Source: Candidatus Latescibacterota bacterium (GTDB lineage: Bacteria; Latescibacterota; UBA2968; UBA8231). Taken from it: a stretch of 64,000 nt of DNA. The notes under the pieces were generated by a model, which saw only the letters and a list, made by a program, of their open reading frames with translations, was not told the origin of the DNA and did no database searches. The stretch's first letter is position 1; each line of letters opens with the position of its first letter. The translations under genes were made by a program, and so were the position numbers. This document shows, one piece after another, positions 7,441-35,410 of this stretch. The stretch covers positions 1,952,001-2,016,000 of the forward strand of contig CBDETY010000003.1 of assembly GCA_965243025.1 (NCBI GenBank), read 5' to 3'.

Positions 7441-7524
7441 CCAGATTCAAACAACCTGGTGGGAGGGGACGAGCCGATGTCCCAGGGCTCAGGTCGTGGA
7501 AGAATCAGCCAGGGGGCTCCGGGA

Positions 7525-13805: not shown

Positions 13806-14029
13806 ATGAGAATGTGATTGCGGCACTAAGGCGCGCAGCGAACAATGCCAATCAGCCAAAGGAAGTCGCAGAGCGTTTTGTTTCTTGGCTGGATGCACTG
13901 GCTACGGGTAACGCGGTGATAACCGACAATAATGAGGCGATAAAGCGAATCTCGGATCTACTGGACCTCGTGCGTGTATCCTCGGAACAAACCAAGGCGG
14001 ACGATCTGAAATCGGAGGTTGGAAAATGA
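13802..14029 (+). CDS. pbeB: Small protein associated with the CxC ATPase (PbeB-like)
   Basis: GTG start overlaps the upstream TGA (GTGA), and its stop overlaps the next ATG. 75 aa, A...QP..VA..FVSWLD.L..GN pattern. Named mainly by position. Confidence 0.65.
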   Translation: MNENVIAALRRAANNANQPKEVAERFVSWLDALATGNAVITDNNEAIKRISDLLDLVRVSSEQTKADDLKSEVGK

Positions 14030-16017: not shown

Positions 16018-16550
16018 TGAGCTTTCGCCTTCGCATTGATGCCGAAAAGTGGTTTTCCGATATCGAATCAGATCTAGAATATAGGTTTGACGCATTTTAC
16101 TTTTGCCTAATGGCAGGATTCTCGGCCGTAAGAAAAGCTCCTATGACCTCGGAGGACAAACCGGCCTTCGTAGACGATTTTCCTGGACCATACAAACTTA
16201 ATCAAAATTTACTCCTTGGTGGGCTGATAAATGCAGAACTGCGGGATCTCCTGGGTCGCAGTGTTGCCATGAGCGATAAACCCGTCGTCGAGCAAACAGT
16301 GTCTAGGCTCCTATCCGTAACTGGATCAAATACTTACCTGAGCACCGGAGTAAATGGTGGCGCGGCGTTAATGAACGAGTATTCTAGTGGTGGCTTCAAC
16401 GTTCTTTCTGAACATCTTGACAAACCACGGCGACTCGAAACGTTCCTCCGTGGCTTCTCCAATCTAATTGAAAAACTGGATGCCCAAAGGATGGAGGTGG
16501 AAACCCTTCTTGAATCCGAACCCTTAAATGAGAATGTAATAACACCTTAA
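16017..16550 (+). CDS. pbeD: PbeD-like protein
   Basis: TAATG overlap with the ATPase stop. 177 aa with FDxFYFCLMAG. Fourth gene of the operon; named by synteny. Confidence 0.6.
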   Translation: MSFRLRIDAEKWFSDIESDLEYRFDAFYFCLMAGFSAVRKAPMTSEDKPAFVDDFPGPYKLNQNLLLGGLINAELRDLLGRSVAMSDKPVVEQTVSRLLSVTGSNTYLSTGVNGGAALMNEYSSGGFNVLSEHLDKPRRLETFLRGFSNLIEKLDAQRMEVETLLESEPLNENVITP

Positions 16551-16621
16551 CACAGCCTCTCCATTCAAAGTTCTAACTGTTCGCCTCCCCCAAAATACAT
16601 AAAGAGGTAAAAAACAAGCCG

Positions 16622-18499: not shown

Positions 18500-18612
18500 A
18501 TCGCCATTGTCGAAAATCCCTCCTTTTTCCCGTTTCCGGGGTTTTTTCTAAGGCTTCGGGAGGCTCCTTAGTGCCTGAAAAAAATACAGCCCCATTACTT
18601 TGTTTTCGAAAA

Positions 18613-19782
18613 TTAACGCAACCCACTAATTTGCTTTGCTATTTCTTCCCAATCTACATTCCGGGTCAGATGGCACCACGACAGGCGGACCGCCCCTTCG
18701 ATGGCTGCGTCCGGCAGTTTCATCGCCCGAAGGACATGGCTTGGCTCGTAGGTTTGGGACGTGCAAGCTGATCCATTCGAAATGGCCGCAATGTCTTTCA
18801 GCGCAACCATAAGGGCTTCCGAATCAATTCCCTCCACAGAAAAGTTCAAGACATGGGGCAACGTTTGCCTGGGATCACCATGTAGGCGGATTCCCAGAGG
18901 GTTCAACGCATTTAAAGCTTGCTCCCGGAGCTCAAGACAACGAACTCGCCGGTTTTCGTGATTTTTCAGGGCCATTTCGGCCGCCAGACCAAACCCCACA
19001 ATCAAGGGAACAGGTAATGTGCCCGGTCGTAGCCCCCGTTCCTGACCCCCGCCGTAGGCTAAAGGCGCCATCGGTGGACGCCTGAACCCGCGCCTACGTG
19101 CGATCAACGCACCGATTCCAAGGGGCCCGTAGACTTTGTGCGAACTCACGCTGATGAGGTCGATTCTGGGGTATTGGAGCGGCAGCAGCTCCTTGCCGAA
19201 TCCCTGAGCTGCATCGACATGAAAAAACGCTTCGTAGCCCGAAAGGGAATCTGCGATTGCACCAATCGGCTGTCTCACCCCGGTTTCATTGTTTACCTGC
19301 ATTACCGAGACGAGGAGCGTGTCTGGCCTCAGTGAGGCAACGATTTCCTCGACCGCTACGGCACCCGAGGTCTGCGGCTCGATTAAGGTGACCGAGAATC
19401 CCCGCCTTTCCAGTACTTCAAGTGGCTCGAGAACGGCCTTGTGCTCGATCGCAGTCGAGACGACGTGCCGACGCCCTTCTGCTTCTCCCCAAGCAGCGAG
19501 TCCGAGAATGGCAAGGTTGTTACTTTCTGTGGCGCCGCTCGTGAAGACAACCTCGTCGGACTTACTTCCCACGGACGAGGCGATTTTCTCACGGGCCTGC
19601 TGCACTGCGTGCTTCGCCCGAGTTCCGTATTCGTGGGTTCGACTGCCGGCATTGCCGATCTCCTCCGTCAACCAATAGGAAACAGCCTCGAGAACCGCTG
19701 GTTCAAGTGGGGATGTCGCATTGCAGTCCAGATATACAGGCCCAGCGCGATGTTCGGATCTATATACGAACGTCCGTTTCAT
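18613..19782 (-). CDS. dndA: Cysteine desulfurase DndA (IscS-like)
   Basis: YLDCNATSP, FTSGATESNN, HVDAAQ, SSHKVYGP (PLP lysine) and SNGSACTS (catalytic Cys). Divergent from dndB. Alternative TTG start at 19791. Confidence 0.93.
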   Translation of the reverse strand: MKRTFVYRSEHRAGPVYLDCNATSPLEPAVLEAVSYWLTEEIGNAGSRTHEYGTRAKHAVQQAREKIASSVGSKSDEVVFTSGATESNNLAILGLAAWGEAEGRRHVVSTAIEHKAVLEPLEVLERRGFSVTLIEPQTSGAVAVEEIVASLRPDTLLVSVMQVNNETGVRQPIGAIADSLSGYEAFFHVDAAQGFGKELLPLQYPRIDLISVSSHKVYGPLGIGALIARRRGFRRPPMAPLAYGGGQERGLRPGTLPVPLIVGFGLAAEMALKNHENRRVRCLELREQALNALNPLGIRLHGDPRQTLPHVLNFSVEGIDSEALMVALKDIAAISNGSACTSQTYEPSHVLRAMKLPDAAIEGAVRLSWCHLTRNVDWEEIAKQISGLR

Positions 19783-19784
19783 TA

Positions 19785-19843
19785 TTGACAAACATTCTCG
19801 AAATGGTTAGTATTAGTATACGCACAACCTTGGCGCTTGGGAA
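19785..19843. promoter_or_regulatory. Overlapping sigma70 promoters for dndBCDE (+) and dndA (-)
   Basis: Plus strand: TTGACA (19785-90), 17 nt, TAGTAT (19808-13). Minus strand: TTCCCA (19843-38), 17 nt, TATACT (19820-15). Confidence 0.7.
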
Positions 19844-19849
19844 GAAAAA

Positions 19850-20956
19850 ATGACTACCGGCTTCGAATACGTGTTCCCTGCCATTCGGGGCATCCAGGCC
19901 CAGCGGGAGTACTACGTTTCCATGTGTCCAATGCGTCTGCTCCCCAAGCTTTTTCTTTTTGACGAAGAAGAACTCGTTCCAGAACTTCGAGCCCAGCGCC
20001 ATCTGAACAAAGCTCGTCTCCCGGAGTTGTCCCGGTACATCACTGAAAATGCTGACAATTATGTCTTTTCCGCCATCACCGTCTCCGTCGATGGCGAGGT
20101 CACCTTCGACCAGATCGTCGACGAAGGCGGCAGTAGCCGCATTGGTACACTTCGCATTCCCATGTCCGCTCGATTCATTATCAATGATGGCCAGCACCGC
20201 AGGGCGGCGATCGATTTGGCCCTCCGGAAGAAACCCGAACTAGGAGATGAAAGCATCGCGGTGGTTTTCTTTCTTGATCAAGGCCTTGAACGGTGCCAGC
20301 AGATGTTCGCGGATCTCAACCGCTATGCGATTCGCCCGTCGAGGTCGCTCAGCATCCTTTATGACTACCGTGATCAGACTGCACGGCTGACAAAAGCGTT
20401 GATTGCCGAATCGTCCGTGTTTCGGGACGTCGTTGAGTTCGAGAAAACGAGCCTGTCAAAGCGATCAGGACGTTTGTTCACACTCAGTGCTATCTATCAT
20501 GCGACCCAAACGTTGATCAGCGAAGTGGAAGAAACCGATCCCCAGGAGACAGCCGGCTTGGCCCTGAAGTTCTGGGAGACCGTCGCAGAGAATTTGAGTG
20601 AGTGGGAGGATTTCCGAACCGGTGAACTTGCCGCTGGTGAACTGCGGAAAGATTACATACACACCCACAGTGTGGTTTTGCAAGCCTTGGCGCACACTGG
20701 TAAAACCTTGATCGCACGGCATCCCCATCAGTGGCAAAAGAAACTGGCCAAGATAAACAAAATCGACTGGAGACGGTCCAATAGTAATTTGTGGGAAGGC
20801 CGAGCCATGATTGGTGGTCAAATTTCAAAAGCCTACAAGAATGTCGTTCTGACCGCAAATGCAATCAAGATGCACCTTGATCTTGAACTGACTGAGGACG
20901 AACAACAAGCCGAAATCGCCTTTAATCGGGGAATGAATGGAAAAAAACAAGGGTAG
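19850..20956 (+). CDS. dndB: DNA sulfur modification protein DndB (DGQHR domain regulator)
   Basis: FPAIRGIQAQREYY, RAQRHLN, INDGQHR and QQMFADLNRYA. Confidence 0.95.
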   Translation: MTTGFEYVFPAIRGIQAQREYYVSMCPMRLLPKLFLFDEEELVPELRAQRHLNKARLPELSRYITENADNYVFSAITVSVDGEVTFDQIVDEGGSSRIGTLRIPMSARFIINDGQHRRAAIDLALRKKPELGDESIAVVFFLDQGLERCQQMFADLNRYAIRPSRSLSILYDYRDQTARLTKALIAESSVFRDVVEFEKTSLSKRSGRLFTLSAIYHATQTLISEVEETDPQETAGLALKFWETVAENLSEWEDFRTGELAAGELRKDYIHTHSVVLQALAHTGKTLIARHPHQWQKKLAKINKIDWRRSNSNLWEGRAMIGGQISKAYKNVVLTANAIKMHLDLELTEDEQQAEIAFNRGMNGKKQG

Positions 20957-22466
20957 GAAAAAGCAAGTCTCGGCCTTCGAGCAAGGAGGCTTAAAGGCCT
21001 CAGTTGCTTCCGCCATTCGGAAAGTGGCAGCACTTTACGAGAGTGATGAAACACCGTGGGTAATTGGGTATAGCGGCGGAAAGGATTCAACCGCTGTCCT
21101 CCAACTCGTCTGGCTCTCACTTGTGGAAATACCGCTTGAGAAACGCACCAAGCCCGTCTTTGTGATTAGCACGGACACGCTGGTTGAGAACCCGATTGTC
21201 GCACTCTGGGTCTCAAACTCGCTGGAGCGGATGGATGGCGAAGCGAAAAAACAGAATATCCCATTGACAGCTCACCGCTTGACACCTGCTACTGAGAATA
21301 CGTTCTGGGTCAATCTCATTGGTCGAGGCTACCCTGCACCACGTCCAAAGTTTCGGTGGTGTACCGAGCGCCTCAAAATAATGCCATCGACCGAGTTCAT
21401 TAGTTCGGTTGTGCAAAAACACGGCGAAGCCATTCTGGTCTTGGGAACGCGTAAAGCAGAAAGCCGCGCACGTGCGCGGGTTATGGAACGCTTTGAAAAA
21501 AAGCGCGTGCGCGACGCACTCAGTCCTAACGGAAGCCTCCCAAACTCCTATGTATATACGCCAATTGAGAACTGGACAAATGACGATGTTTGGTTGTTCC
21601 TCATGCAAATCCGGAATCCTTGGGGTTACAATAACAAAGATCTCCTGACGATGTACCAAGGAGCCTCTGCGGATGGTGAGTGCCCGCTGGTTGTCGACAC
21701 GAGCACCCCGAGTTGCGGGGACAGCCGTTTCGGGTGCTGGGTTTGCACCCTTGTGGAAAAGGACAAGTCAATGCAGGCAATGATCCAGAACGACCAAGAA
21801 AAGGAGTGGATGCTGCCGCTACTAGGGCTGCGCAACGAACTTGATCCGCCAAAGTCACGGCAGGCCGACCGCCCACTGCGGGACTTCCGGCGCATGAGCG
21901 GAGCAGTTCAGCTTTTTCATGATCGCCCCATCCCTGGACCCTATAAGCAGCACGTTCGCGAAAATTGGCTGCGGAAAGTTTTGGAGGCGCAGCAGCATGT
22001 CCGCGAGAACGGTCCGGAGGAGGTTCGCGAAATTGAACTGATTACCCTCGACGAGCTTGAAGAAATCCGGCGAATCTGGGTTGTCGATAAGCACGAGTTA
22101 GAAGACAGTCTTCCCTCGGTTTACCGTGAATCGACCGGACAGCCATATCCCGGCAGCCGGATCGATGACAATCCTATCGTTGGGTCCGGTGATATGAATC
22201 TACTTCGCGAGATATGCGAAAAAGACGATCTCCACTACCAACTCACGCGGGAGCTTCTTTCGATCGAAAAAAAACATAAGTCGATGCTACGGCGGGCAGG
22301 GATTTTTGATGTGATTGAGAGTGCCTTTCGCCGACATTTCTACGATGACGAGGACGATGCTCTTGAACGTGCACGCCAAAGGGAGGGAACACTAGAGGCA
22401 GCGCGAACTCGCGTTTTTGCACAAACATCGAGCAACATCCAAGAATCTCTATTTGACGAGCCGTAG
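20937..22466 (+). CDS. dndC: DNA phosphorothioation sulfurtransferase DndC (PAPS reductase family, Fe-S)
   Basis: GYSGGKDS, DTLVENP, RWCTERLKI and ECPLVVD...SCGDSRFGCWVCT. Confidence 0.96.
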   Translation: MEKNKGRKKQVSAFEQGGLKASVASAIRKVAALYESDETPWVIGYSGGKDSTAVLQLVWLSLVEIPLEKRTKPVFVISTDTLVENPIVALWVSNSLERMDGEAKKQNIPLTAHRLTPATENTFWVNLIGRGYPAPRPKFRWCTERLKIMPSTEFISSVVQKHGEAILVLGTRKAESRARARVMERFEKKRVRDALSPNGSLPNSYVYTPIENWTNDDVWLFLMQIRNPWGYNNKDLLTMYQGASADGECPLVVDTSTPSCGDSRFGCWVCTLVEKDKSMQAMIQNDQEKEWMLPLLGLRNELDPPKSRQADRPLRDFRRMSGAVQLFHDRPIPGPYKQHVRENWLRKVLEAQQHVRENGPEEVREIELITLDELEEIRRIWVVDKHELEDSLPSVYRESTGQPYPGSRIDDNPIVGSGDMNLLREICEKDDLHYQLTRELLSIEKKHKSMLRRAGIFDVIESAFRRHFYDDEDDALERARQREGTLEAARTRVFAQTSSNIQESLFDEP

Positions 22467-22480
22467 TCAGAGCCTAATAA

Positions 22481-24472
22481 ATGATATTGGATGAAATCAC
22501 GCTCTATAACTTCGGTCTGTACTCAGATCGGCAGACCATTTCGCTTACTCCGGCTTCAGCTAGCAAACCGGTAGTCCTGCTCGGGGGATTGAACGGTGGC
22601 GGGAAGACGACCTTTCTGGACGCGCTTCACCTCTGTTTGTTTGGGCCCCACGCAAAGATCTCCAATCGTGGGTCGCTTTCCTACGGAGAATACCTGAGCC
22701 GTTCCATCCATCGCGGAGTGAAAACACTCGAGGCCGCGATTGAGATTACGTTTCGTCATACAAGCGAAGGTCAAGAAGACAGCTACAACCTGGAACGATC
22801 CTGGTACGTCTTTAACGGTAATTGTAGAGAGGTTTTCAAAGTTAGGAAGAATGGAGTCGCAGATTCAGCTCTTTCCGAAAATTGGGCAACACAGGTTGAG
22901 GATTTTGTCCCACCGAACATAGCCCACTTGTTCTTATTCGATGGTGAACAAATTGAAGGCTATGCCTCGGACGAAAAATCCTCCGAATTGATTGGTGCAG
23001 CGATACAGAACCTGCTTGGACTGGATATGGTCGATCAATTGGAGAAAGATCTTCTCGTTTTCGAGAGACGGAAACGATCTGATAAGAAAAATGATGTGGC
23101 CCTGGCGGAGATAAAAGGCGCAGAAATTGATTTGCTCGACCTTCGAAGACGAGCAGATGAACTGACCCAAGAGCGTGCTTCTCTGCAAACGCATGGGATC
23201 GACCGCGTGGAACGTGAGCTGGAAAAAGTAGAAGATAAATATCGCAAGCTTGGGGGCGATCTTTTCGATCAGCGTTTGAAATTGGAACGGTGTTTGTGTG
23301 AGGCCGAGACGGCTGTTTTTCAGAGCGAGAATGCGCTACGGGAGGCAGCTGCTGGTTTATTGCCGTTGATGATGGTCGAGGCCCTTATTGAATCCGCTCA
23401 CACAAGAGACCGACATGAGGAAGATTGTCGGCGCGCGCGAGAAGTGGTCGATGTGCTGCAGGCACGTGATCGTGCAGCACTGAAAAAACTTCGGTCTCAA
23501 TCTCTGTCCGAAGACGTTCTTGAAACGATGAGGCAGTTTTTCAAAGCCGACCGTTCAGACCGCAGGGCACTAGGGAAGAAAGAAACCCTCCTTGGTCTTT
23601 CCCCCGAGATACGGACCGATTTTCACAACTTGATGCGCGGAGACCTTGGGAAGGCGTTGGCCAATGCCAGCCAGGAACTTAAGCGGCATAAGGAACACGA
23701 AGCCCGAGCCGAGGCTGCTCGAGCGGAATTCGAGAGCATCCCGAGCGCTGATACGATTAGCGAGGTCGCCAGAGAACGCAACGAGCTGAAAGGGGAGCTT
23801 GGAACGCTCAAGGCACAACATGCTGCTTTGTCCAGAGAGATTGATCGGTTGTACAGAGAAATAGATCGGAAAGGCCAAGCCCTTACCCGCCTGCACGAGG
23901 CAGAAGCCAAAGCGATGAATGATCGAGATGACCGGACCCGCACTCTGCGGCACGCTGCGAAAGTTCGCGGAACACTCAAGGCGTATCGCAAAGCGGTTGT
24001 CGAACGCCATGTACGCCGCATTGAGCAGCTCGTTCTCGAAAGCTACAAGCAACTCCTCCGAAAAGCTACCCTTGTGACCCGACTGTCCATCGACCCTCAA
24101 CAGTTCTCGATCACATTATTCGGCGGCGAAGGACGGATTCTCACCACGGAGCGTCTGTCGGCCGGTGAACGGCAACTTCTTGGTATTGCCCTGCTCTGGG
24201 GGCTTGCAAAAGCATCGGGCCGGCCCTTGCCGACTGCCATTGATACGCCGTTGGGAAGGTTGGACGCTGGGCACAGGATGCATCTCGTCGAGCGCTACCT
24301 GCCCTTCGCCAGTCACCAAGTCTTGCTGCTGTCTACCGACGAGGAAATCGCGGGCGATTACCTCGACCGGCTTAAGCCGTGGATTGGGAAGACCTATTTC
24401 CTTGATTATGACGACCATACGGAAAAAACTCGAATTGTTCCTGGGTATTTCCAAGAAATGGAGGCAGCGTAA
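22481..24472 (+). CDS. dndD: DNA sulfur modification ATPase DndD
   Basis: GLNGGGKTT, LFLFDGEQI, coiled coil, LSAGERQ, IDTPLGRLD and ASHQVLLLSTDEEI. Confidence 0.96.
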   Translation: MILDEITLYNFGLYSDRQTISLTPASASKPVVLLGGLNGGGKTTFLDALHLCLFGPHAKISNRGSLSYGEYLSRSIHRGVKTLEAAIEITFRHTSEGQEDSYNLERSWYVFNGNCREVFKVRKNGVADSALSENWATQVEDFVPPNIAHLFLFDGEQIEGYASDEKSSELIGAAIQNLLGLDMVDQLEKDLLVFERRKRSDKKNDVALAEIKGAEIDLLDLRRRADELTQERASLQTHGIDRVERELEKVEDKYRKLGGDLFDQRLKLERCLCEAETAVFQSENALREAAAGLLPLMMVEALIESAHTRDRHEEDCRRAREVVDVLQARDRAALKKLRSQSLSEDVLETMRQFFKADRSDRRALGKKETLLGLSPEIRTDFHNLMRGDLGKALANASQELKRHKEHEARAEAARAEFESIPSADTISEVARERNELKGELGTLKAQHAALSREIDRLYREIDRKGQALTRLHEAEAKAMNDRDDRTRTLRHAAKVRGTLKAYRKAVVERHVRRIEQLVLESYKQLLRKATLVTRLSIDPQQFSITLFGGEGRILTTERLSAGERQLLGIALLWGLAKASGRPLPTAIDTPLGRLDAGHRMHLVERYLPFASHQVLLLSTDEEIAGDYLDRLKPWIGKTYFLDYDDHTEKTRIVPGYFQEMEAA

Positions 24473-24855
24473 TGGTTGTTGACCACATCAGACTGTCCCA
24501 GCAGGCCAAGGATCAGCTTGTCAAGCTCAAACGGGTCACCGGAATTGAACACTGGAATGTGCTATGCCGCTGGGCATTGTGCGTCTCGTTCGCCGAGCCG
24601 AGTTTCCCTCCTTCCTCAAAGATTCCTGCGGACAGCAATGTAGAGATGAGCTGGAAAGTATTTGGGGGTCGGTACGCCGGTCTCTATATGGCACTTTTGA
24701 AAGAGCGCTGTGTGCGCGACGGTCTTGGCACGGATAGCGATACCCTATCTCAACAATTCCGGCTGCATCTCCACCGTGGCATTTCCTACCTCGCAGGAAA
24801 CAGGAATATACGTAGTATCACGGACCTTATTGCGCTTCCAGTTGCTCAAGAATAG
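24472..24855 (+). CDS. dndE: DNA sulfur modification protein DndE
   Basis: IRLSQQAKDQLVKLKRVTGIEHWNVLCRWALCVS...EMSWKVFGG...FRLHLHRGISYL. TAATG overlap with dndD. Confidence 0.95.
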   Translation: MVVDHIRLSQQAKDQLVKLKRVTGIEHWNVLCRWALCVSFAEPSFPPSSKIPADSNVEMSWKVFGGRYAGLYMALLKERCVRDGLGTDSDTLSQQFRLHLHRGISYLAGNRNIRSITDLIALPVAQE

Positions 24856-25506
24856 ATATCGTCTTCGTTTGCCGCGATACGGGGCTGGCCCTCCTTGGGT
24901 GGGTTCCCGTCCAGCGATGAACTTGCCCCCCAACTACTGTTCTGTAATGCGACAGAACGATTGGTCCGACGCAAATAGGCGCACCTGAAACGCTCGCTCA
25001 ACCTCGCTCAACGAAAATGGATATCTCCGTAAAGTAGGGAAAGGGGGATCTCAGGGGACCCCCAGGAACAAGAAGAAAAGGGCAGCAAATCAACTACTAA
25101 TGGATTTACCTAAATTCTGCTGTCCGGTTGTCCAAAGACTGGGTTCACCTGACGTATTTGCCGGGGCAGCTCGCTGGTTTTTTGATCGCTTGCCCTGCAC
25201 GAATCCTCTGGCGATCAGGATCTCCTCCTCATCGGCGAGGCCCTTGCCGTCGAGGAATTCGGCCAGGAGGTCGTTATCCCTCAGTGGCACAGCGACCCGC
25301 CATTCCTGAAATCTCCCGGATAACACCGCGACTGGCGTCCTTCGAAGCGTAGCCTCCGGCGTCCTCTCGATTTTCCCCAGACAGTCGTTTCCCCCGACTC
25401 GACCTGAACAGATGGCGGAATCGCAGGGACTTCGTTTTCGCCGATTGCTGGGGGACTGCCTTCCCCTGCAAGGCCGACCTTTCCCTACTGCCAGGCCAGC
25501 CTTTTT

Positions 25507-25643
25507 CGGAATACTCTAGAGGCACATGCAACGGGGAAGCCGGCAGGATCCGCTGCCGCTTCCCAGTCCTTCTGTCGGTGACACGCCGACAGAATCACCT
25601 TCCCACTGAAACCGAAAGGACTGCCATGGGAGCGTGAATCACA
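25507..25643 (+). repeat. Copy A of a ~135-nt structured leader element (copy B at 31888-32025)
   Basis: Near-identical to 31888-32025. Hairpins GGGAAG-C-CGGCAG/CTGCCG-CTTCCC and TTCTGTCGG/CCGACAGAA. Patchy homology continues upstream (CGTCCTCTCGATT, TTCCTGAAATCTCCC, GACTGCC). Confidence 0.85.
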
Positions 25644-25802
25644 CTATTTGTTGAGGGCAGGCCCTTGGCCGGGGGGTTCTGGTGGAGCCTGATACAGTTG
25701 CCCGAAAAGTTGCTCGAACCGCTGGACCTGCTGCGGAACCCAGTGGTCCGCCTAACCGAGCGTCAAGGGGGGCAAAAGGGTAAGCTTGATTAAGAAACAT
25801 AG

Positions 25803-28800
25803 TCACGCCATGAGGCCGTCAGCCCCGCGAAACCGCTGAACCGCCATTTCGAACGGCAGGGCATCTTCCCAGATTGCGCGACCGATTCGGAAGCGTGCCT
25901 CGCCCTCCGTGATTTCGAGTTCAATCTCGCCTCGCGGTTTGCGGGCAGTGTCCGCCGCTTCTTGAAGGGACTCGTAGTCCGACACTGCCGTCTGGAGGTG
26001 CGCCCCGATTCCGAATACGACCCGGAGCCCCTCGCGGATCATCTCGCTGGTTGGGGCGTCGTCATTTAGGGGAACCACGCACAGCGCGAAGCGGTCGCCG
26101 AGGGAGCACGCCTGCTTCGCCTGGACGGGCGTCATCTTCACTATGTCTCCTTTCGTGCTTTTGACTTCAATGAACGTGGAGCCGGGGGTGCCCTCCAGTT
26201 CGAGCCAGATCTCCTCATCGTTCTCGACGAAGTCGCTCTCCACCTCGAAGTCGGACCCTATCCCCGTGCGGCGCACGGTCAGTCCACAGCCTTCTAACTC
26301 CTGCTGCAGGAGTTGTTCGACCCGACGGCCGATCTCCTGGTTCCGCCGGACCTTCTGCCGGTCCTTCTTCTGTTCCTCGATCGAGTCTATGATCTCCGGA
26401 TGCTCGCAGATCTCGGTCGCCAATTGGCGGAGGCGGTCGACATCGCCAGCCACCTCCGCTAGGTCATGCATTGACCGGATCAACATCAGCCGTTGGTCTT
26501 CGTCGACGGCCACGGCCCGAAGCGCGAGGTCTGAGGGCCTGATCCCCAAGGCGTCCAGGAGTTCCTTACCCCGGGCACGGGACAGGAGTTCCTGCGTTTC
26601 CGGCGAATCCGCGAGGAGCTCTGCCAGCGATTCAGCGGATGCCGTCTCAGCGCGACCGCTGCTTGCATCGATCGGCACCCACCTCCGGTGGCGGAGCGGC
26701 GTGAGCCAAGCTGCACGGTAGGTCTTGTGGCAGTCGCCGCATTCGCAGTCGACGCCGAATTTATGGAAAGCTCTCTCGTCCGACTCTGCCACGTACTCGA
26801 TTAGGAACCGGACGAATTCCTTGGCACGCCTCCTGCTCTTTCGCGCCGTGTCGATCAATCCGATGTCGGATTCCTGAAGACACGCCACGTCTGATACCTC
26901 GACCTCGAGCGTCGACTTGTGGATGCCCTCAGGCGGCTCGTCGGGCAGGAATGCCTCAACCACTCGCTTTGTCTCGATCAACGGGGAGGCGTTCAAGTAG
27001 CCGCTCGCCACCAGCCTATCCCACACCTCGGGTTCGGTTTGGTCGACGAAGGCTTCCGCAAGTACTTTGCCCTTGGGGAACAGTGAACCGAACCGCCGTG
27101 CGCCTTCGGGCCAGATCGCAAGCGGCGCCAAGGGCTTTTCGGGTGCATCGCGTCCCCGTTCGAGACACAGCACGGCGAGGACGTCATCGCCCTCTCCGGC
27201 CGTCGGCACGGGGTAGCCCTCCAGAAGTTCAAGGTAGTCCGGGTGGACGGCAATCCAGTTAAACAGCCTGACAGCCGCCGGAGCCAGGAGCACCTTGATC
27301 GTTCCGTCCCGGCACTCCTCCTTCACGTGCGCCAGGAGTTTATCGAGCACCTCCCGTTCTTGCCTCGGCTCAAGGAGTTGGGTCAATACGTCCATCTCTG
27401 CCTGCCTGTCAAGCAGTTCGTTGCGAAACTCCAGGCCGAATGCCTCCGCGATGTCCTTGAGCTCGTCGGAGATCCCCTGGTCGCGAAAGAGGCCCTTGCG
27501 GGTTCGCAGGCCACCGGCTTGGGTAGGAAGTAACTTGTGCTTGTCGAGGATTCCTGTTTTTCCTGAGTCACAGACAAGTTCGAAAAAGGACAGGAGCCAG
27601 GACAGGCTTTCCCTGCTCGTCAGTAGCTGTTGCAGACCCTCCACGCTCTCTGCGTCGCTGACCAACTGTGCGACCTTTTCTATTGTTAAGGCCTCGTCCA
27701 TTTCCTCCCGCGGTTTGTCCAAGAGCTTTGCCCAGTTGGTGAGGTTTTTCGACCAGGAGTCCAGTTCCTCGCAGCAGGGAAGCCGCTGCTGGGCCTCGCT
27801 CCACAAGGACATGAGAGTCCAGAGCTCGGTTGAATGGGCTGGGTCTTCGGTCGTCGGCACCCACGACGCTTGCGGCTGTATCCAGTCCCCACCCAGAGTC
27901 GGCATCAGCGGCGTTGCCCGGGCTTTTCGGACCAGTTGAGTTAAGAGGCCGCGAAAAAAAGCATCTCCGTCAACCCAGTCCGGATGATGCGCGGTGTCGA
28001 AACCCAGCACTTGGTGGGCCTTGGTCCACTTCCTCTGGGCACACCAATCCAGGATCTGCTCTTGGTGCCGAACTGATTCCAGTAGCAATTGCTTGTTCTT
28101 ACGCACCCCTTCGGAATCTCCGGTCAAGAAGATACCGTTGCGGTCTTCGTGGGGCTTGAACCGTTTGCTGTTCACCGTAGCCGGAAGCCCCAGACCTTCG
28201 CTGCCTATCAGCGGGAAAACCACGAATAGTTTCGCAGTTGTCTCGTACCCCTGATCGATCTGAAGTCCGGATTCGCTTGGACGGAGCTGGAGTGCTGCGC
28301 AACATTCGCCTTCCCCTTCCGCGACTGCCACGTAGCGGGCCAAGTCCTCACCTGCCTCTGCGTACTGAATCAATAGCTCGCCGTCCGCACTCCGGTTGCC
28401 GCGTGTAAGGCTCCACCTTGCGTCGGAGGTCCCGACATGGATACTCGTAATCTCCGGACAGAAAGCCAGGACTAGCGGTCCGCACCGGCGAAGCTCCTCC
28501 AACCCCGCTTCGGCCAGCCCGCGCCCTGGTGGCGTGAATTGGTAGGCAAACGAGGTGTTCGGGCCCGCCCCCGGCTGCGCAGGTTTGACCGACTGCACGA
28601 ACGAGTCCCATGACCGATTCATTGCACAACCCAACTCTTCAACGGTCCTCCCAGTACGATCCAGCAGGAAGGTAAATGCTTTCAAGTCGTCGAGCCGCCC
28701 CGCAACTCGGATTTTCCGGGACAGGAGGTGCGTGGTCAGGAATCCCGACCCGAACTGACCGATGTATTGGTCGTCCTGAAACTTGGTCGAGCCATGGTAC

Positions 28801-29057
28801 ACGAGATGCGCTATCTCATCGGACGTAAATGGCTTGCCGTCGTGCGCGAACCGGAACTCCTTCGCCGAAACGCGCATCTCGATGCGGACACCTTTGCCCC
28901 TTGCCACATCCCGGGCGTTTTGAAGCAATTCCCAGATCCAGCGTGCGCTCAGAAGAGTTCGGTTGTTCTCGATTCGCTCAAGGTGCTTGAACACGGTTTG
29001 CCCAATGGTTTCCGCAACGACGCGGTCCTTGGCATCGTTCAGTTCTTTTTCGGTCAC
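25803..29057 (-). CDS. Sacsin-like GHKL/HATPase with C-terminal DUF3883 (NO VEIN-type PD-(D/E)XK nuclease)
   Basis: WELLQNARD, FAHDGKPF and GQFGSGFLTTHLLS (GHKL N/G boxes). C-terminal EIGRRVE...GIGSDFEV...FIEVKST. 1084 aa. Confidence 0.85.
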   Translation of the reverse strand: MTEKELNDAKDRVVAETIGQTVFKHLERIENNRTLLSARWIWELLQNARDVARGKGVRIEMRVSAKEFRFAHDGKPFTSDEIAHLVYHGSTKFQDDQYIGQFGSGFLTTHLLSRKIRVAGRLDDLKAFTFLLDRTGRTVEELGCAMNRSWDSFVQSVKPAQPGAGPNTSFAYQFTPPGRGLAEAGLEELRRCGPLVLAFCPEITSIHVGTSDARWSLTRGNRSADGELLIQYAEAGEDLARYVAVAEGEGECCAALQLRPSESGLQIDQGYETTAKLFVVFPLIGSEGLGLPATVNSKRFKPHEDRNGIFLTGDSEGVRKNKQLLLESVRHQEQILDWCAQRKWTKAHQVLGFDTAHHPDWVDGDAFFRGLLTQLVRKARATPLMPTLGGDWIQPQASWVPTTEDPAHSTELWTLMSLWSEAQQRLPCCEELDSWSKNLTNWAKLLDKPREEMDEALTIEKVAQLVSDAESVEGLQQLLTSRESLSWLLSFFELVCDSGKTGILDKHKLLPTQAGGLRTRKGLFRDQGISDELKDIAEAFGLEFRNELLDRQAEMDVLTQLLEPRQEREVLDKLLAHVKEECRDGTIKVLLAPAAVRLFNWIAVHPDYLELLEGYPVPTAGEGDDVLAVLCLERGRDAPEKPLAPLAIWPEGARRFGSLFPKGKVLAEAFVDQTEPEVWDRLVASGYLNASPLIETKRVVEAFLPDEPPEGIHKSTLEVEVSDVACLQESDIGLIDTARKSRRRAKEFVRFLIEYVAESDERAFHKFGVDCECGDCHKTYRAAWLTPLRHRRWVPIDASSGRAETASAESLAELLADSPETQELLSRARGKELLDALGIRPSDLALRAVAVDEDQRLMLIRSMHDLAEVAGDVDRLRQLATEICEHPEIIDSIEEQKKDRQKVRRNQEIGRRVEQLLQQELEGCGLTVRRTGIGSDFEVESDFVENDEEIWLELEGTPGSTFIEVKSTKGDIVKMTPVQAKQACSLGDRFALCVVPLNDDAPTSEMIREGLRVVFGIGAHLQTAVSDYESLQEAADTARKPRGEIELEITEGEARFRIGRAIWEDALPFEMAVQRFRGADGLMA

Positions 29058-29350
29058 CTGCCAGTCTCCAAGAGTAAGGACTCCACCTGCCCTGTTTTAA
29101 GGCTCCTCTGTGCCTCGACCGGTCGGTTCTGGTGGAGCGGCTTGAGTTTCACGAGAACGCTCCCAGGGGGGCTCGACATGTTCCGCAACCAGTAGTGTGA
29201 AGGGCGTCCACAGCGGAAGAGGGAGTTTCGGCCCGGACGAGGTACGGAAATCGTTATCCTTCGAGGGCGTTCCTCCAACCGTCTTCACCCGTTCTGTGCA
29301 TCAATCCTGACCACATGGGCAGTCCCCCTCTGAGAAGTAGCAAGTTTATT

Positions 29351-30388
29351 CTAACTGGCCATATTTTTCCCGTCGGTACTCCACACGTTATCCCGTTCAA
29401 CAACTATAACCATACAAAATTTGGACAAGTCTTTTCCTTTCCAAAAGGATATATCGTATAAGGAATATGAAGACCAGTTGGTTATTACCAGAATACACGG
29501 GTTACTCTGAACGCGAGATGATTTTTTTTCAAGAATTCGAATGACTTCTTTGCTGACATCAGCCAAAGTTTCCCCAGGCTGTTTAGCGACACGTTGGATT
29601 GTCTCTTCTAGATTTTGGTATCCTGCCTTGATGGTCCATTTGCCCAAATCTGGTACAGAGGTTATTTCGATGTCATAAACGGTACCTTTGATAGCTGCTC
29701 TATAATCAGGGAATTCATTCTCCCCATTCGGATATTTTTGTTCTTCTGAAATGGTTATTTTCTTCTTCAGAATCCACAGTGAAACCTTATTCCAAGTAAT
29801 TTCTTCGGAGATCTCATTGCTATTCATCATCTCTGGTGAGAACATGGATATATTTGTTGGAGAATCGCTGGCAAGTATTTCCCACGGTGAATCGGCGGGA
29901 TTGTTCAAAACAATAAACATATCTTTTCTTTCTGCATCTATATCAAGGATTTCCTCGAAAAGTGGTAGAGATTTTTCAGTTCCTTTCTTGTTGCGAACGT
30001 GGAGAACTTTCCGAGCCTTTTTCCTGAATGGTTCCTCTTTTGTGACTATTGGAGAAGGAAGATGTGCTAACTGCTTGGTTACCGTAGTCTCAAGAGATTT
30101 AGAGAAAAGAATGGTTACGGAAGTAACTCCTTCGGCAAAATCGGGATCAGCAGCCTCAACGGTGTTATAATGATCCTGAATTGTTTTTACAATATTTCCC
30201 TCATCATTACCTCGTGAGATCCCTGGTAAATCTCCTAAATGGTACCACAAACGATAATCCCACATCTTTAAAAAGATGCGGTTCATTTCTCCAGGCGATG
30301 CCTCAATAATTATCGGGCATCGCATCAAAAGTGGATGATCCTGCTCGACACGACGCACGGGCAGTCCGTATGGAATTCTCCCATTCAT
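29351..30388 (-). CDS. AT-rich hypothetical protein with possible C-terminal PD-(D/E)XK-like nuclease fold
   Basis: 345-aa ORF, AGGAGG RBS, motif EFPDY...YDIEITSV. Confidence 0.6.
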   Translation of the reverse strand: MNGRIPYGLPVRRVEQDHPLLMRCPIIIEASPGEMNRIFLKMWDYRLWYHLGDLPGISRGNDEGNIVKTIQDHYNTVEAADPDFAEGVTSVTILFSKSLETTVTKQLAHLPSPIVTKEEPFRKKARKVLHVRNKKGTEKSLPLFEEILDIDAERKDMFIVLNNPADSPWEILASDSPTNISMFSPEMMNSNEISEEITWNKVSLWILKKKITISEEQKYPNGENEFPDYRAAIKGTVYDIEITSVPDLGKWTIKAGYQNLEETIQRVAKQPGETLADVSKEVIRILEKKSSRVQSNPCILVITNWSSYSLYDISFWKGKDLSKFCMVIVVERDNVWSTDGKNMAS

Positions 30389-31870
30389 ATAAATAAATCC
30401 TCCTAGTTAGGATCAGAGGGATCGGCGTTGGTGAAGATTTCCCACGCCGGCTGTTCTGGCTTTTACCGAGTCCTTTCGTCCATCCATTTCTCCGGTTTCA
30501 TGGGTTATACAGGGCCAAGTGGGGGAACAAAGGAAGCCGTCGTTCGATTCGATTCAATAAGGTTTTCCACATCGCTTCCGTGATTGAGGGCAAACCAATG
30601 GAGGCCGTTTTTTCGCCCCTGTTGGCCGATGTTCCCTCCCTGGAGGAAATCCAGTATAGTTCAAAAACCCGGCTCGCTGCGCCAAGAACGCCTCTGGATC
30701 GAAGGAGCCGCTCTCCCTCTCCTAGGCTTCCAAGGGCGCCACTCCTGCGATCTCGCGGATCGAGGTGCTCAGGTAGACGGCGGCCAGCAGGTTCGCGGCA
30801 GGTGCCGCATGCGATGTCGTGGTGAACCGGGGCCAAGGCGTAAACCGGATCGCCGTTGTCTGAACCCCGGGAGTTCCGGGCGCTTGCCCGTGAGTCGATT
30901 ACAAGGGCTTCGCCGACGAGGATAGTCCTGCCGAGTCAGCTGCCCCTCCCGCGACTTCCAAACGACCCCCCGATCCAGCGGGTAACCGAGGAATCCTCTA
31001 TAGAAGCATTCCTGTCTCCGGCAGCGCCCGTTGGTCTAAGCAAGCCCCACGTCAGGGATGGTGCTATTCTTCCCCGGCCGGGGTGGGACTTCCTGTTTCT
31101 CAGGTCCCCGAACATTGGCTCTCCTTTGGCACTTGTCAATCAAACCGCATCGACCCTCAGGAACTCACGGCCTGCCCGGTCCGACTCGGATCCGATTGGA
31201 ATCCCGGGGTATCCGCTCCTTTCCGAGCTGTCTGTAACGGAACCCAAGCGGATGAGGATTTCTTCGTTGGGGAACCCCTCGAATCGAGACCCCACCGGAT
31301 CGTATCGGCGGAACCGCTCCTGGAAAGCGGCCAGTTGCGGATTTAAGGTGGAGGCCCTCGCAGTTCGCTCCTCAGCACCCGGTTTTTTCGCACCTCGCCG
31401 CTCAGTTCCTGAAATCTCCCCGAATCCCGATCCGGACTCAGATCCCTCCTCGATCAGGAGCGGTGGCCTTCCGATCCCCGGTACCGATTTCCCGAGGGGT
31501 GTGCAAGGCACCGACAGGATCGCCTCGCGAATCGTCGGCTTCTGCATTCTCCGTAGAAGAATGCCCTCTTCCGCAGGCGCGATCTCAGCAAATACCATGC
31601 CGGGGCACTCGCGCCTCGACCCGCCGATCCTGAAATCTTTCGGATAAACCGGCGATTGCCCGCTTCAGAATCTTTGCCCCTCCGAAGCGCCTCCTTCCGC
31701 GTCCTCTCGATTATCCGCAGACCCCCGGTCTTCTCCGCCTCGTAGCGCGACTCCGTTTCCCAGATCTCCGGAGACTGCCCCTCCCCTGACCTGCCCTCTC
31801 CCCCCCTTGCAGAATGCGCCAAAGTTTCCCGTCGCCATTACGGGGTTTTTTGAATTCCCCGAAAGCCGAC

Positions 31871-32025
31871 TTGATTTTTTAATCCAGCGGAATACACTAT
31901 AGGCACATGCAACGGGAAGCCGGCAGGATCCACCGCCGCTTCCCCAGTCCCTTCTGTCGGTGCCACGCCGACAGAGTCACATCCCACTGAAACCCGAAAG
32001 GACTGCCATGGGAGCGTGAATCACA
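31871..32025 (+). ncRNA. Candidate structured leader RNA (with promoter) upstream of the IS1595 transposase
   Basis: TTGATT-N16-TACACT promoter-like element, then two hairpins and crossing helices covering the SD (GAAAGGA) and a mini-ORF ATG-GGA-GCG-TGA that overlaps the GTG at 32016. Stems are kept in copy A. Confidence 0.5.
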
Positions 32026-33104
32026 TCGTTTTTGGTAAGGGCCGCAGGTCTCCAGTTCGGTATTCCACGGCCCGAAGGTCAGTAAGGATGAGTAATGGTA
32101 AAAGCATCTCGTTAATTGATTTGTTCAGCATGTTTCCAGATGACGCAACCGCAGAAAAATGGTTCGAAGAGAAAAGATGGGGGAAGACCGTAGACGGCCT
32201 TCCCGAATTCATATACTGCCCGCGCTGCGGCCGCTCCGACAGGGTATCGGAATGCCCCGGCCGCAAGCCCATGCCCTACTGGTGCGGCGGCTGTCGAAAG
32301 CGCTTCAGCGTGCGCACGGAAGGGGGAATGTCCCACTCCAAGATCCCCTTGCGAAAATGGGCCATCGGCGTCCACCTGTACGAATCCAGACCGAAGGGAA
32401 TCAGCGCCAGGCAGCTTGCGAGCGACCTCGACCTTGCGTATTCGTCGGCCTTGTTCATGCTGCACCGCCTCCGGGAAGCCTGGCCGGATCCCGAACCGCT
32501 ACGCAGCAGCATGGCCGAGATAGATCAAGCCTGGTTCGCCGGAGACGATAAAAACAGGCACGCCGACAAGAAGTTTCACTGGAAATGGAGGTTTGGCAGT
32601 ACCCCCGTGAGCGGAGTGCGCTGCCGGGAAACCGGCGACGTGGCCTCCAAGGTGGTCCCTGATGAGACACGCGAGACCGTGTTCCCCTTCGCCGAGGAAA
32701 ACGTACGCCCGGAGGGCGCCCTTTTCAGCGACAATGCCCCGACCTTTGGCGATGGTTTCGAATGGCCGGGAAGACACGACACCGTCAACCACAAGGAGGA
32801 ATACGTCAGAGGGGAGGTCCATACGAACGGCATGGAATCGTTCTGGGCCAAGGCGAAGCGAACGATATACGGGACCCACCACCACGTGTCTCCCAAGTAT
32901 CTGCCCCGATACCTCAAGGAGATCACAGGCAAGCACAACATCCGCAACCTGGACCCCGAGGAGCGGATAAGGTATCTGACGGCGCGGATGATGAGGAAAC
33001 GGCTGACCTACCGGGATCTGCTGGCGACGGAGGTTCCTCCGGTTCCCTACACTCATCACCGGTCGAAGGAAAGGGCGAAACTGTTCGGATGGCCAGGAAG
33101 ATGA
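32016..33104 (+). CDS. IS1595-family (ISXO2-like) transposase
   Basis: CPRCG...YWCGGCRKRFSVRT, GISARQLASDL, EIDQAW / FSDN / HTNGMESFWAKAKR and KYLPRYLKE. Alternative ATG start at 32088. Confidence 0.92.
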   Translation: MNHIVFGKGRRSPVRYSTARRSVRMSNGKSISLIDLFSMFPDDATAEKWFEEKRWGKTVDGLPEFIYCPRCGRSDRVSECPGRKPMPYWCGGCRKRFSVRTEGGMSHSKIPLRKWAIGVHLYESRPKGISARQLASDLDLAYSSALFMLHRLREAWPDPEPLRSSMAEIDQAWFAGDDKNRHADKKFHWKWRFGSTPVSGVRCRETGDVASKVVPDETRETVFPFAEENVRPEGALFSDNAPTFGDGFEWPGRHDTVNHKEEYVRGEVHTNGMESFWAKAKRTIYGTHHHVSPKYLPRYLKEITGKHNIRNLDPEERIRYLTARMMRKRLTYRDLLATEVPPVPYTHHRSKERAKLFGWPGR

Positions 33105-33420
33105 CATCCCGCTGCCGGTGCCTGCGGTCTTGCGCATTGCCGGCGGAACGGGAATCGATTCTCATCTGGTCTTTGGATGGAAGGCGATCATTCCGAATGG
33201 TCAGCAAGATGAAAGCCCCGCTGCACGGTGCCTCCGGTCAGTATTCTCCTACGGAGAATACCCCCGTCTTCCGCATCGCCGGCGGAACTGAATCGATGCT
33301 CATCTGGTGGAGGGAAGCGGCGAATCATGCCGAATGGTCGGCAAGGCGACATCCCTGCCGGCTGCCTCCCCTGTTGCGCCTGGAGCTCAGGCTGCACCCG
33401 AGGAATCCTCAGTCATCCTG

Positions 33421-33790
33421 CTTGCCCTCTTGTCGACCAAGCGGGATGACTTCCTCCTCACCTCGGCGACGACGGCTTTGCAGACCCGGGGCATTCGCGC
33501 ATCCTCTCCTCCATCAGAAAGCGGCCTTTCGATCCACGGTGCCGACTTCAGGGGGGAGGTACCTGCGAGTCCGGATAGATGGGCGGATGCAGACTGCCTG
33601 ACTATGAGAACGCCATGATATGCGGTTGCGAATCGTCGACTCAGATCAGGCAAGAGTCCCGGTTCCCTCCTCGATCCGGAATCAGATCCAGCTTGCCCCT
33701 TGCCATCTTATCGACCAAACCGAATGATCCCCTCCTCACCTCGAAGACGACGGCTTTGCGAAACTCAGGGGAATCCGCGCATCCCTCCAC
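33421..33790. repeat. Degenerate direct repeat pair (33421-33510 and 33699-33790)
   Basis: CTTGCCCTCTTGTCGACCAAGCGGGATGACTTCCTCCTCACCTCGGCGACGACGGCTTTGC versus CTTGCCATCTTATCGACCAAACCGAATGATCCCCTCCTCACCTCGAAGACGACGGCTTTGC. Confidence 0.75.
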
Positions 33791-33998
33791 GATTAGGGCG
33801 GTGGCCTTCCCGATCCAGGGTGCCAATCTGGCAGGCTTCTCCGGTCAGCACGCAATCATGTGGAATTGCCAGCCAGTCGACATCCCCCATCTCCCGGCTA
33901 TTACAGTGGGACGAAGGATGTCCGTTTCTCTGCAATTTCTCTACTATATTATACCAGATTTTATTTAAATTCGCGGATGAGATCACTAAAATTCCCTT

Positions 33999-34021
33999 GC
34001 GCAGTTATCTATATAATTCCC
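33999..34021 (-). mobile_element. Probable IS1595-family terminal inverted repeat; right boundary of the island
   Basis: Minus strand GGGAATTATATAGATAACTGCGC fits the ggnnatTAT end consensus I recall for the ISNwi1 group. It sits exactly at an abrupt GC step and at the truncation point of a host gene. Confidence 0.65.
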
Positions 34022-34216
34022 CTCGTAGCAGTCGTCGAGGGCGTCGATGCTCTCGAAGTCGGGAGAGGGCGGCCACAACAGGTTGCCGTCCGGCTTCGTG
34101 TATCTCTCCAGCACCCGGGGCGCCGCCTCCTCGATGGCGTCGAACAGCCGGCGCTGAAGAACCGCCCAGCGCGGCGGGTCGGGCGCGGGCTCGCGGGCCT
34201 CGATTGTGACGGTCAT
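34022..34216 (-). pseudogene. 5' fragment of a host gene interrupted by the island
   Basis: Host-like GC-rich codons (MTVTIEAREPAPDPPRWAVLQRRLFDAIEEAAPRVLERYTKPDG...DDCYE) run straight into AT-rich TIR sequence and stop at 33986. Confidence 0.7.
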
Positions 34217-34468
34217 GCTGCGGCTCCCCGGTTGCGCATAGGGCATGGCCCGGTTGCGCGTTCAACACCCCCCGGGCCGATACGCCGGGGGCATCTCTCC
34301 CTGCGCGACATTTCCGGGCGGCGGTTCAATCGGTCGGTGGACGAATGGCCGGTCGATATTGTACGTGATGCCGGAAGGTCCACTCAGGTATATTCTTCCC
34401 GGAATGAATCATTTCTCTGATCTGGCAACCGGCGGCGCCCGGAAAACGGCGGGTACCCGGGCAACGGC

Positions 34469-35410
34469 ATGAGTCCGCTCCCTCGATTCACCGGACTGGA
34501 GGCAGCCGGCGCGCCGGACGCGGCCTCCGTCGACGCCATCGCCGCGGCGGCCCTCGCCGAGGACCTCGGCTCTTGGGAACCCTCCCCGGAGGCGGACCTG
34601 ACCACGGCCTGGACGGTCGCCCCGCAGGCGCGGGCGCGGGCCCGCATCGTCGCCCGGCAGCGGGGGGTGATCGCCGGCCTGCCGGTCGCCTGCGCGGTCT
34701 TCCGCCGCCTCGACGGCTCGCTGCAGTTCGGCCGCCTCGCCGCCGAGGGCGGCATCGCCGAGGCGGGTGAAACCGTCGCCGAGGTGTCGGGGGCGGCCCG
34801 TTCCCTGCTGGTCGGGGAGCGCACCGCCCTCAACCTGCTGCAGCGCCTCTCGGGAACCGCCACCCTGACCCGCGGCTTCGTCACCGCCATCGCCGGCACC
34901 GGGGTGCGCGTCACCGATACCCGCAAGACCACCCCCGGCCTGAGGCAGCTGGAAAAGTACGCGGTCCGCTGCGGGGGGGGCGTCAACCATCGCCACGGCC
35001 TCTACGACGCCGTCCTGATAAAGGAGAACCATGCGGCCGCCGCCGGGGGCAGCGCCGCGGCGGTGCGGCTGGCCCGGGAAGGGGCGGCAAAGGCTGGTGC
35101 CGAAGGGGCCGCTCCCCCGCACCTCATGGTGGAAGCCCGCGACCTCGACGAGGTGCGCGAGCTCACCGCCCTGGAACGCGGCCTGCGGCCGGACCGGATC
35201 CTGCTCGACAACATGCCCCCCGAGGCAATCCGGGAGGCGGTGGCGCTGATCCGCCCGCTCGATCCGCCCATCGAGATCGAGGCGACCGGCGGCATCGGCC
35301 TCCACAACGTCCGCGACATCGCCCTGACCGGGGTCGACCTGGTCTCGATCGGGGCCCTCACCCACTCGGCTCCCGCCCTCGACCTCAGCCTGCTGTTCGA
35401 ACGCGCCTGA
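34469..35410 (+). CDS. nadC: Nicotinate-nucleotide diphosphorylase (quinolinate phosphoribosyltransferase)
   Basis: ERTALNLLQRLSG, DTRKTTPGLR, NHRHGLYDAVLIKENH, LLDNM, EATGGI and SIGALTHS. Confidence 0.96.
   Translation: MSPLPRFTGLEAAGAPDAASVDAIAAAALAEDLGSWEPSPEADLTTAWTVAPQARARARIVARQRGVIAGLPVACAVFRRLDGSLQFGRLAAEGGIAEAGETVAEVSGAARSLLVGERTALNLLQRLSGTATLTRGFVTAIAGTGVRVTDTRKTTPGLRQLEKYAVRCGGGVNHRHGLYDAVLIKENHAAAAGGSAAAVRLAREGAAKAGAEGAAPPHLMVEARDLDEVRELTALERGLRPDRILLDNMPPEAIREAVALIRPLDPPIEIEATGGIGLHNVRDIALTGVDLVSIGALTHSAPALDLSLLFERA

Follow-up and report, generated by a model that had tools for sequence, protein, structure and literature searches.

Two copies of a conserved block, one of them ahead of a transposase gene

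The window, that is, the whole 64-kb stretch of DNA that was analysed, carries two plus-strand copies of a block that is a duplicated, strand-asymmetrically structured, non-coding element. The analysis shows the duplication, the capacity to fold with its strand bias, the non-coding character, the link to one transposase subfamily and the conservation of 32008-32087 in two distant homologues. On our best reading, a multi-copy IS1595-family transposase gene has a non-coding 5′ region of which this block is the best-conserved part. Its action as RNA, its action in cis and its mechanism are what we infer beyond that, and we give an even chance to the proposal that the block serves the transposase mRNA as a structured 5′ leader acting in cis, copy A being a truncated remnant.

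Copy A spans positions 25507-25658 and copy B positions 31888-32042, sharing 88.5% identity over 157 columns (blastn, E 4e-42). A 30-nt stretch on the 3′ side occurs exactly twice in the window, compared to none expected from 100 shuffles. A covariance model built from the two copies and applied, unfiltered, to the plus and minus strands of the window matched at 195.6 bits (copy B) and 190.2 bits, with the next best match at 13.1 bits; no third copy was found in the window. The duplication recognised by an earlier, sequence-only reading is thus borne out by all three approaches. The block of ~150 bases can fold into three RNA hairpins. As delineated by blastn, the covariance model and the fold z-scores, copy B consists of a 5′ single-stranded part, the hairpins P1 to P3 and a U-rich tail. 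By the same means, copy A is a solo copy, which has no spacer, hairpin P4 or transposase behind it. Its neighbours are dndE (24472-24855) on one side and, on the other, the TmtA (Tiamat) gene (25803-29057, minus strand, 1084 aa), whose 3′ end faces it; no gene follows the copy. The position ahead of an IS1595 transposase, once attributed to the block as such, therefore holds for copy B but not for copy A.

The copies show 12 differences, comprising seven substitutions and five single-base indels, nine of which lie at unpaired positions although ~60% of the bases are paired. With at most three of the 12 in stems, the binomial probability is ~0.015, for a structure that was itself predicted from the same two sequences. 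Of the others, one replaces the U-A pair that ends P2 by U.G, a register shift takes up one in the upper part of P1, and the internal loop of P3 is changed by one or two. RNAalifold gave 34 pairs, three of which have one-sided compatible changes and 0 of 34 two-sided changes, which for two sequences amounts to no test; the difference pattern is compatible with the structure and is not a test of covariation. The indels between the copies (+1, -2 and -1) break every reading frame, so that the block is not protein-coding. Both the open frame 31875-33104 and a 27-codon ORF from ATG 31907 were rejected as coding, since the indels shift their frames.

Predicted fold of the block

The plus strand of both copies folds better than dinucleotide shuffles, with z-scores of -3.12 for copy B and -3.88 for copy A, compared to -1.01 and -1.99, respectively, for the minus strand. 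P1 occupies 31914-31944 in copy B and 25534-25564 in copy A, according to the MFE and centroid folds and the RNAalifold pairs. P2 (31952-31976 in copy B, 25570-25594 in copy A), also found in the folds and by RNAalifold, has 11 bp including a conserved U.G pair, whereas P3 (31977-32019 and 25595-25637, from the folds) has a large loop that carries a GAAA mini-hairpin. The stems of the three plus-strand hairpins are 7+5, 11 and 4+5 bp long, and their loops are variable. P2 and P3 contain U.G pairs, each of which would read as an A.C mismatch on the minus strand; together with the strand bias of the z-scores, their conservation favours an RNA over a DNA-level element. The block further contains three near-palindromes and a 9-bp palindrome, GTGAATCAC.

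In addition, sequence complementarity and loop shuffles point to a candidate pseudoknot on the plus strand, in which the 5′ arm CAGTCC (31945-31950) would pair with the 3′ arm GGACTG (32000-32005) inside the P3 loop. The match comprises 6 bp in copy B, with a duplex energy of -8.0 kcal/mol, and 7 bp in copy A; complementarity of at least 6 bp arose in 90 of 20000 loop shuffles. The CC-GAAA-GG mini-hairpin and the CAGTCC/GGACTG helix share the same two G, so that full pairing of both is impossible and the two compete. The helices named in the sequence-only reading are present in both copies and in the MFE folds, but its tetraloop and GGACTG pairings are mutually exclusive in full. In RNAalifold, a second way of closing the structure also came up, a CAUGC/GCGUG helix in competition with the outer stem of P3, so that alternative states are possible in prediction. 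A long-range helix between GGAAUAC (31889-31895) and GUAUUCC (32060-32066) was discarded as not significant alone, being reached by 280 of 5000 shuffles.

A search with the 4227 covariance models of Rfam 15 gave no match at the gathering score in the whole window, and no family matches either copy. When both blocks were searched at E up to 10, no relevant match appeared, known ribozyme and riboswitch classes included. The sole listings were eukaryotic lncRNA models, which lie on the minus strand upstream of the block and score far below threshold. The repeats downstream of the transposase gave nothing relevant at E up to 1.

The duplicated unit and the flanking repeats

To judge from the alignments, a pair of upstream blocks, U_A (25282-25401) and U_B (31606-31742), both on the plus strand, forms a much more diverged part of the leader's duplicated unit. 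The U blocks share 94 of 119 aligned bases (z 14.9; 66% identity by blastn), compared to 140 of 150 aligned bases for the leader (z 40). The stretch between U block and leader retains weak homology (z 4.2), and none was detected before or after the duplicated unit (z -0.9 after 25658). Such uneven conservation within one unit suggests either constraint on the leader or homogenisation among copies.

A stretch of ~55 nt just upstream of copy B is absent from copy A and includes a terminator-like hairpin followed by T6 (31827-31852, plus strand). The promoter reported upstream of copy B, TTGATT-N16-TACACT (31871-31898, plus strand), does exist as a motif, with TTGATT at 31871-31876 and TACACT at 31893-31898, but it is weak, matching the consensus at 8 of 12 positions; a scan of 24800-33400 with a threshold of 9/12 called no promoter-like site. 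TTGATT falls within the B-specific stretch, which places the -35 element outside the conserved unit, and the -10-like hexamer TACACT lies inside the conserved block. In both copies, a U-rich tract follows P3, beginning 9 nt past the stem; no terminator was predicted behind the block by the scan.

Downstream of the transposase gene lies the R-block (33421-33543, plus strand), which is related to the U blocks and repeated at 33699-33824. It is also kept behind a 56%-identical homologue, as seen in the C-terminal read-through peptide of P0132. Altogether, five related repeats of ~120-140 nt occur in the same, plus-strand orientation (25282-25401, 31388-31500, 31606-31742, 33421-33543 and 33699-33824). 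They share the core GCGGCCTT-TCGATCC or a variant of it, flank the transposase and lie upstream of both leaders; they may represent element ends, a preferred target or decayed copies. Two tandem units of ~110 nt, 78% identical, stand behind the transposase stop (33127-33235 and 33266-33369, plus strand). The second is accompanied by an extra perfect 9-bp hairpin (33241-33261), GTATTCTCC-TAC-GGAGAATAC, an arm of which resembles the first bases of the leader (CGGAATAC). Comparison of 31880-31935 with 33105-34060 detected no terminal inverted repeats, scoring 10.5 against a shuffle maximum of 15.5, with repeats shorter than 10 bp being below detection, and a separate search gave no convincing candidate.

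The transposase start and the region between block and gene

Copy B lies on the same strand as the transposase, and its end is 45 nt upstream of the ATG. The gene (32088-33104, plus strand) encodes a 338-aa IS1595-family DDE transposase, whose catalytic domain matches PF12762 (DDE_Tnp_IS1595) with E 9.4e-29 and 100.8 bits against a cut-off of 27. The zinc ribbon PF12760 stays below its cut-off (17.4 versus 25.4 bits), and an N-terminal CxxC...CxxC motif, CPRCG...CGGC, is seen in P0002, the recorded protein that is 100% identical to the transposase. P0002 starts at ATG 32088. Among 16 relatives of the subfamily, 11 have a Met at the corresponding position, as the first residue in nine, where the sequence begins M-x-N/K-G/D..., and internally in P0013 and P0021; the remaining five were called from later methionines. 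GTG 32016 is merely the first start codon of the open frame.

These starts bear on the upstream ORF that had been proposed to end on an overlapping transposase GTG. The overlap has to be abandoned, because the gene starts at ATG 32088 and the region upstream is not kept in frame. The mini-ORF itself, ATG GGA GCG TGA (32008-32019, plus strand), is located in the 3′ strand of P3, 69 nt from the true start. P0021 is the only homologue in which it can be read; there, the ATG is kept and the stop is replaced by a Trp codon. Given this replacement and the distance to the real start, translational coupling is not supported either, and the mini-ORF is probably incidental, a part of P3.

The likely Shine-Dalgarno sequence of the transposase, judged from its sequence and position, is GAAGG (32074-32078, plus strand), located 9 nt before the ATG, and AAGGT is kept here in P0013 and P0021. 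The GGACTG arm overlaps the Shine-Dalgarno-like GAAAGGA, the motif formerly suggested to be masked by a helix. Just upstream of GAAGG, the folds place a fourth plus-strand hairpin in the spacer, P4 (32039-32073), formed by GGGCCG (32039-32044) and CGGCCC (32068-32073). In P0021, one G-C pair of P4 would become A-U if a Ser codon is TCN, a putative compensatory pair deduced from the peptide. Folding of either 31903-32120 or 31888-32120 keeps P1 to P3 and adds P4 beside the Shine-Dalgarno sequence, and the start codon is paired in the predicted folds (unpaired probability 0.00-0.01).

Two distant homologues extend the comparison beyond the window. P0021 (375 aa, 50% identical to the transposase) has the N-terminus MGAWITIF..., which corresponds to the mini-ORF read through, and P0013 (354 aa, 56% identical) starts with MVSSTVFHGSKVIG. 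Their N-terminal extensions back-translate onto window positions 32008-32100 and 32046-32100, respectively. Among the fully determined bases, 47 of 56 match for P0021 and 27 of 32 for P0013, and gaps in these alignments break the frame. By the same measure, the coding region matches at 72% (P0021) and 74% (P0013); as the aligner is biased toward matches, we limit the claim to the upstream region being at least as conserved as codon positions 1-2. Back-translation thus shows that 32008-32087, made up of the 63-nt spacer and the final 18 nt of the block, is conserved non-coding sequence of the subfamily, a segment that does not cover P1 to P3. This conservation upstream of P0013 and P0021 backs the link between the block and the subfamily.

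Distribution of the transposase and of the leader

The 90%-identity cluster of the transposase has six members, four of them on one contig of 6,776,184 nt, which also holds paralogues of 81%, 61% and 56% identity. At least four copies of at least 90% identity on one contig indicate that the gene is multi-copy. The subfamily (P0002-P0030) has a strongly conserved C-terminal tail, ...LLATEVPPxPYTHHRSKER... or ...THHRWKEGEPFRK..., and many of its members are truncated or frameshifted. The window holds a second IS1595-like gene (4960-5952, minus strand), which encodes 330 aa with 50% identity to the first transposase. It is located directly behind a RadC-like JAB gene (5994-6431, minus strand) and ahead of a terminator-like hairpin, an arrangement more suggestive of an operon gene than of a free IS. 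Neither a leader nor inverted repeats were found at this gene.

The covariance model found the leader motif at none of five plasmid IS1595 loci collected by tblastn, which encode proteins with at most 38% identity to the transposase. Along with the second gene in the window, these loci suggest that only a narrow subfamily has the leader. One 18-mer of the block occurs at 18 loci in genome contigs, approximately the chance number; none is block-like outside the 18-mer, and the covariance model scores them at no more than 19 bits, compared to 190 for true copies. A blastn search of copy B against plasmids and phages gave no match. At the protein level, searching the frame-0 peptide of the leader against longer proteins found no spurious ORF translating a homologous leader, and residues 1-42 of P0021 matched only P0021. 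A phmmer search with a minus-strand 49-aa ORF returned 17 matches, all to multi-stretch parts of long proteins, which were judged spurious.

Genomic surroundings

Positions 1-34000 of the window have a G+C content of 44-62%, compared to 53-74%, mostly 65-74%, for the rest. The low-G+C part is a defence island, in which 11898-29057 encodes PbeA, a PbeC-like protein, a GmrSD/HEC-06-type protein, DndA (divergent), DndB-C-D-E and TmtA. At ~33950-34010 the G+C content jumps from 58% (33001-34000) to 71% (34001-35000), and an A+T-rich patch at the right border of the island adjoins nadC (34469-35410). The nearest nadC cluster occurs most often in Planctomycetota, a possible hint at the host phylum. 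The window has no tRNA or tmRNA gene, and an attachment site of that type was rejected. Within the island, an ankyrin-repeat protein (6760-7440, plus strand) and a protein with SWIB/MDM2 and DnaJ domains (7864-8358, plus strand) carry eukaryote-like domains, and a segment is partly duplicated (6657-6836 and 7511-7691).

The regions that surround the block, 24856-25802 (0.95 kb) and 30389-32087 (1.7 kb), contain no recognisable or recorded gene. All nine ORFs in these two regions are absent from the protein collection, five candidate flank ORFs have no Pfam match, and the ORFs there are rich in proline, serine and arginine. A 345-aa ORF next to TmtA (29351-30388, minus strand) has no Pfam or PADLOC match and is a singleton cluster in the protein collection.

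A proposed structured leader of the transposase mRNA and its alternatives

We propose that RNA of the transposase strand would fold into P1 to P3, perhaps joined by the pseudoknot of 6-7 bp, and that these hairpins would be followed by the 63-nt spacer with P4 next to the Shine-Dalgarno sequence (32074-32078) and the ATG (32088). Copy B would be the intact unit, and copy A a remnant that retained the upstream block and the leader and lost the spacer and the gene. The leader would set the amount of transposase by limiting translation initiation or the lifetime of the mRNA, and might also act on transcripts that read in from outside. Several observations point to such a leader: the block has the same strand as the gene and the appropriate position, folding is stronger on the plus strand, the differences between copies avoid stems, and the leader is the best conserved part of the duplicated unit. 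Moreover, the transposase is multi-copy, sequence upstream of P0021 and P0013 is conserved, and in the predictions the start codon is paired and P4 adjoins the Shine-Dalgarno sequence. Other observations speak against it. None of the 34 pairs covaries on both sides in the two sequences, and the conservation seen in homologues is limited to the spacer and the final 18 nt of the block, without P1 to P3. Copy A has an intact fold and no gene, which a trans-acting or DNA-level role would explain as well as a recent truncation would. In the scan, no promoter came up to the threshold and no terminator was called behind the block; terminal inverted repeats were not found, and the motif is restricted to a narrow subfamily. 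Simple masking of a ribosome-binding site would not need ~140 nt so tightly conserved.

Among the rival explanations, a DNA-level element is unlikely. Here, the palindromes would bind the transposase or a host or regulatory protein, as subterminal sites, an operator or a recombination site, and the fold would be a by-product. The three near-palindromes and the 9-bp palindrome, the location in a non-coding transposase flank, the persistence of copy A without a gene and the minus strand of copy A, which folds somewhat better than shuffles, are what such an element would show; the strand bias, which is clear, and the conservation of U.G pairs nevertheless favour RNA, no inverted copy of the block stands on the other side of the gene, and long stems with variable loops are unlike typical short operators. 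A little more unlikely still, in our view, is a stand-alone or trans-acting small RNA that partners the transposase as scaffold or guide or regulates other copies, with copy A as a working solo gene. It would account for the three hairpins and pseudoknot arms retained in solo copy A, for leader conservation far beyond that of the flanks, with a 3′ part at least as conserved as codon positions 1-2, and for the -10-like hexamer in the block and the U-rich tract past P3 in both copies. Functional RNAs are encoded in the non-coding ends of IS110/IS1111 and IS605-type elements. However, IS1595 enzymes are DDE transposases that are not known to require RNA, and the U tract starts 9 nt past the stem, where no terminator was called. 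A very long shot is that the RNA of the block works with the DDE (IS1595-type) transposase as scaffold, guide or copy-number sensor and that copy A is a solo RNA gene. If true, this would represent a new kind of RNA-dependent transposition, beyond DEDD (IS110) enzymes and TnpB/IscB.

That the block is functionless, being left over from a segmental duplication or gene conversion and able to fold by chance only, appears quite improbable. There are two copies only, double-sided covariation is absent and the neighbouring non-coding DNA is full of decaying repeats, all as expected of a relic; yet conservation is uneven within one duplicated unit, part of the region is kept upstream of homologues with 50-56% identity, differences are depleted in stems and the pseudoknot complementarity is rare in shuffles. 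Very improbable, finally, is a leader that senses a ligand or signal, as a riboswitch or thermosensor does, or a ribozyme that cleaves itself and thereby processes read-through transcripts. The compact multi-hairpin fold with its pseudoknot candidate would suit either, and the CAUGC/GCGUG helix set against outer P3 makes two states conceivable in prediction, but none of the 4227 Rfam models gives a match, even when E values up to 10 are allowed, and a terminator-type expression platform was not found by the scan.

Comparison with known transposon systems

The proposed leader can be set beside three groups of elements. As in the IS1595 family (ISfinder; PF12762, PF12760), the catalytic domain matches and the gene is multi-copy. 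It differs from that family in that no terminal inverted repeats were detected and that direct repeats (the U and R blocks) occur in its long non-coding flanks. The conserved C-terminal tail (...THHRSKER...) is a further difference, as are the five plasmid IS1595 loci, none of which has the leader. The accessible portion of the literature on IS1595 elements and structured or non-coding RNA describes no such leader. That a leader can hold down transposase expression is an established concept, and the same portion describes no case among IS1595-type elements; if covariation confirms the fold, the block would define a new RNA family that marks one IS1595 subfamily and gives a handle on the control of that subfamily.

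The bridge RNA or seekRNA of IS110/IS1111 elements resembles the block in its RNA-like structure, its length of ~150-180 nt and its place upstream of the transposase, in non-coding flanking sequence, and in being better conserved than neutral DNA. Those systems use DEDD recombinases, whereas the enzyme here is a DDE transposase of the IS1595 family, and no target- or donor-binding loops were identified in the block. Since the neighbouring enzyme is DDE and not DEDD (RuvC-like), membership of the block in the IS110/IS1111 system is not supported.

The transposase mRNAs of IS10, IS50 and IS200 have structured 5′ leaders, which act by fold-back inhibition or by stem-loops that occlude the ribosome-binding site. 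Similar to these leaders, the block belongs to a sense-strand non-coding region between the element end and the transposase start, the predicted structure takes in the start codon, and the presumed role is to keep transposase synthesis low. It differs from them in belonging to the IS1595 family and in sharing no sequence or Rfam relation, and occlusion is here a prediction. In addition, its domain of ~140 nt, with three hairpins and a pseudoknot candidate, far exceeds theirs in length and is under tighter conservation. Its length, its tight conservation and its survival as a solo copy make this leader unusual.
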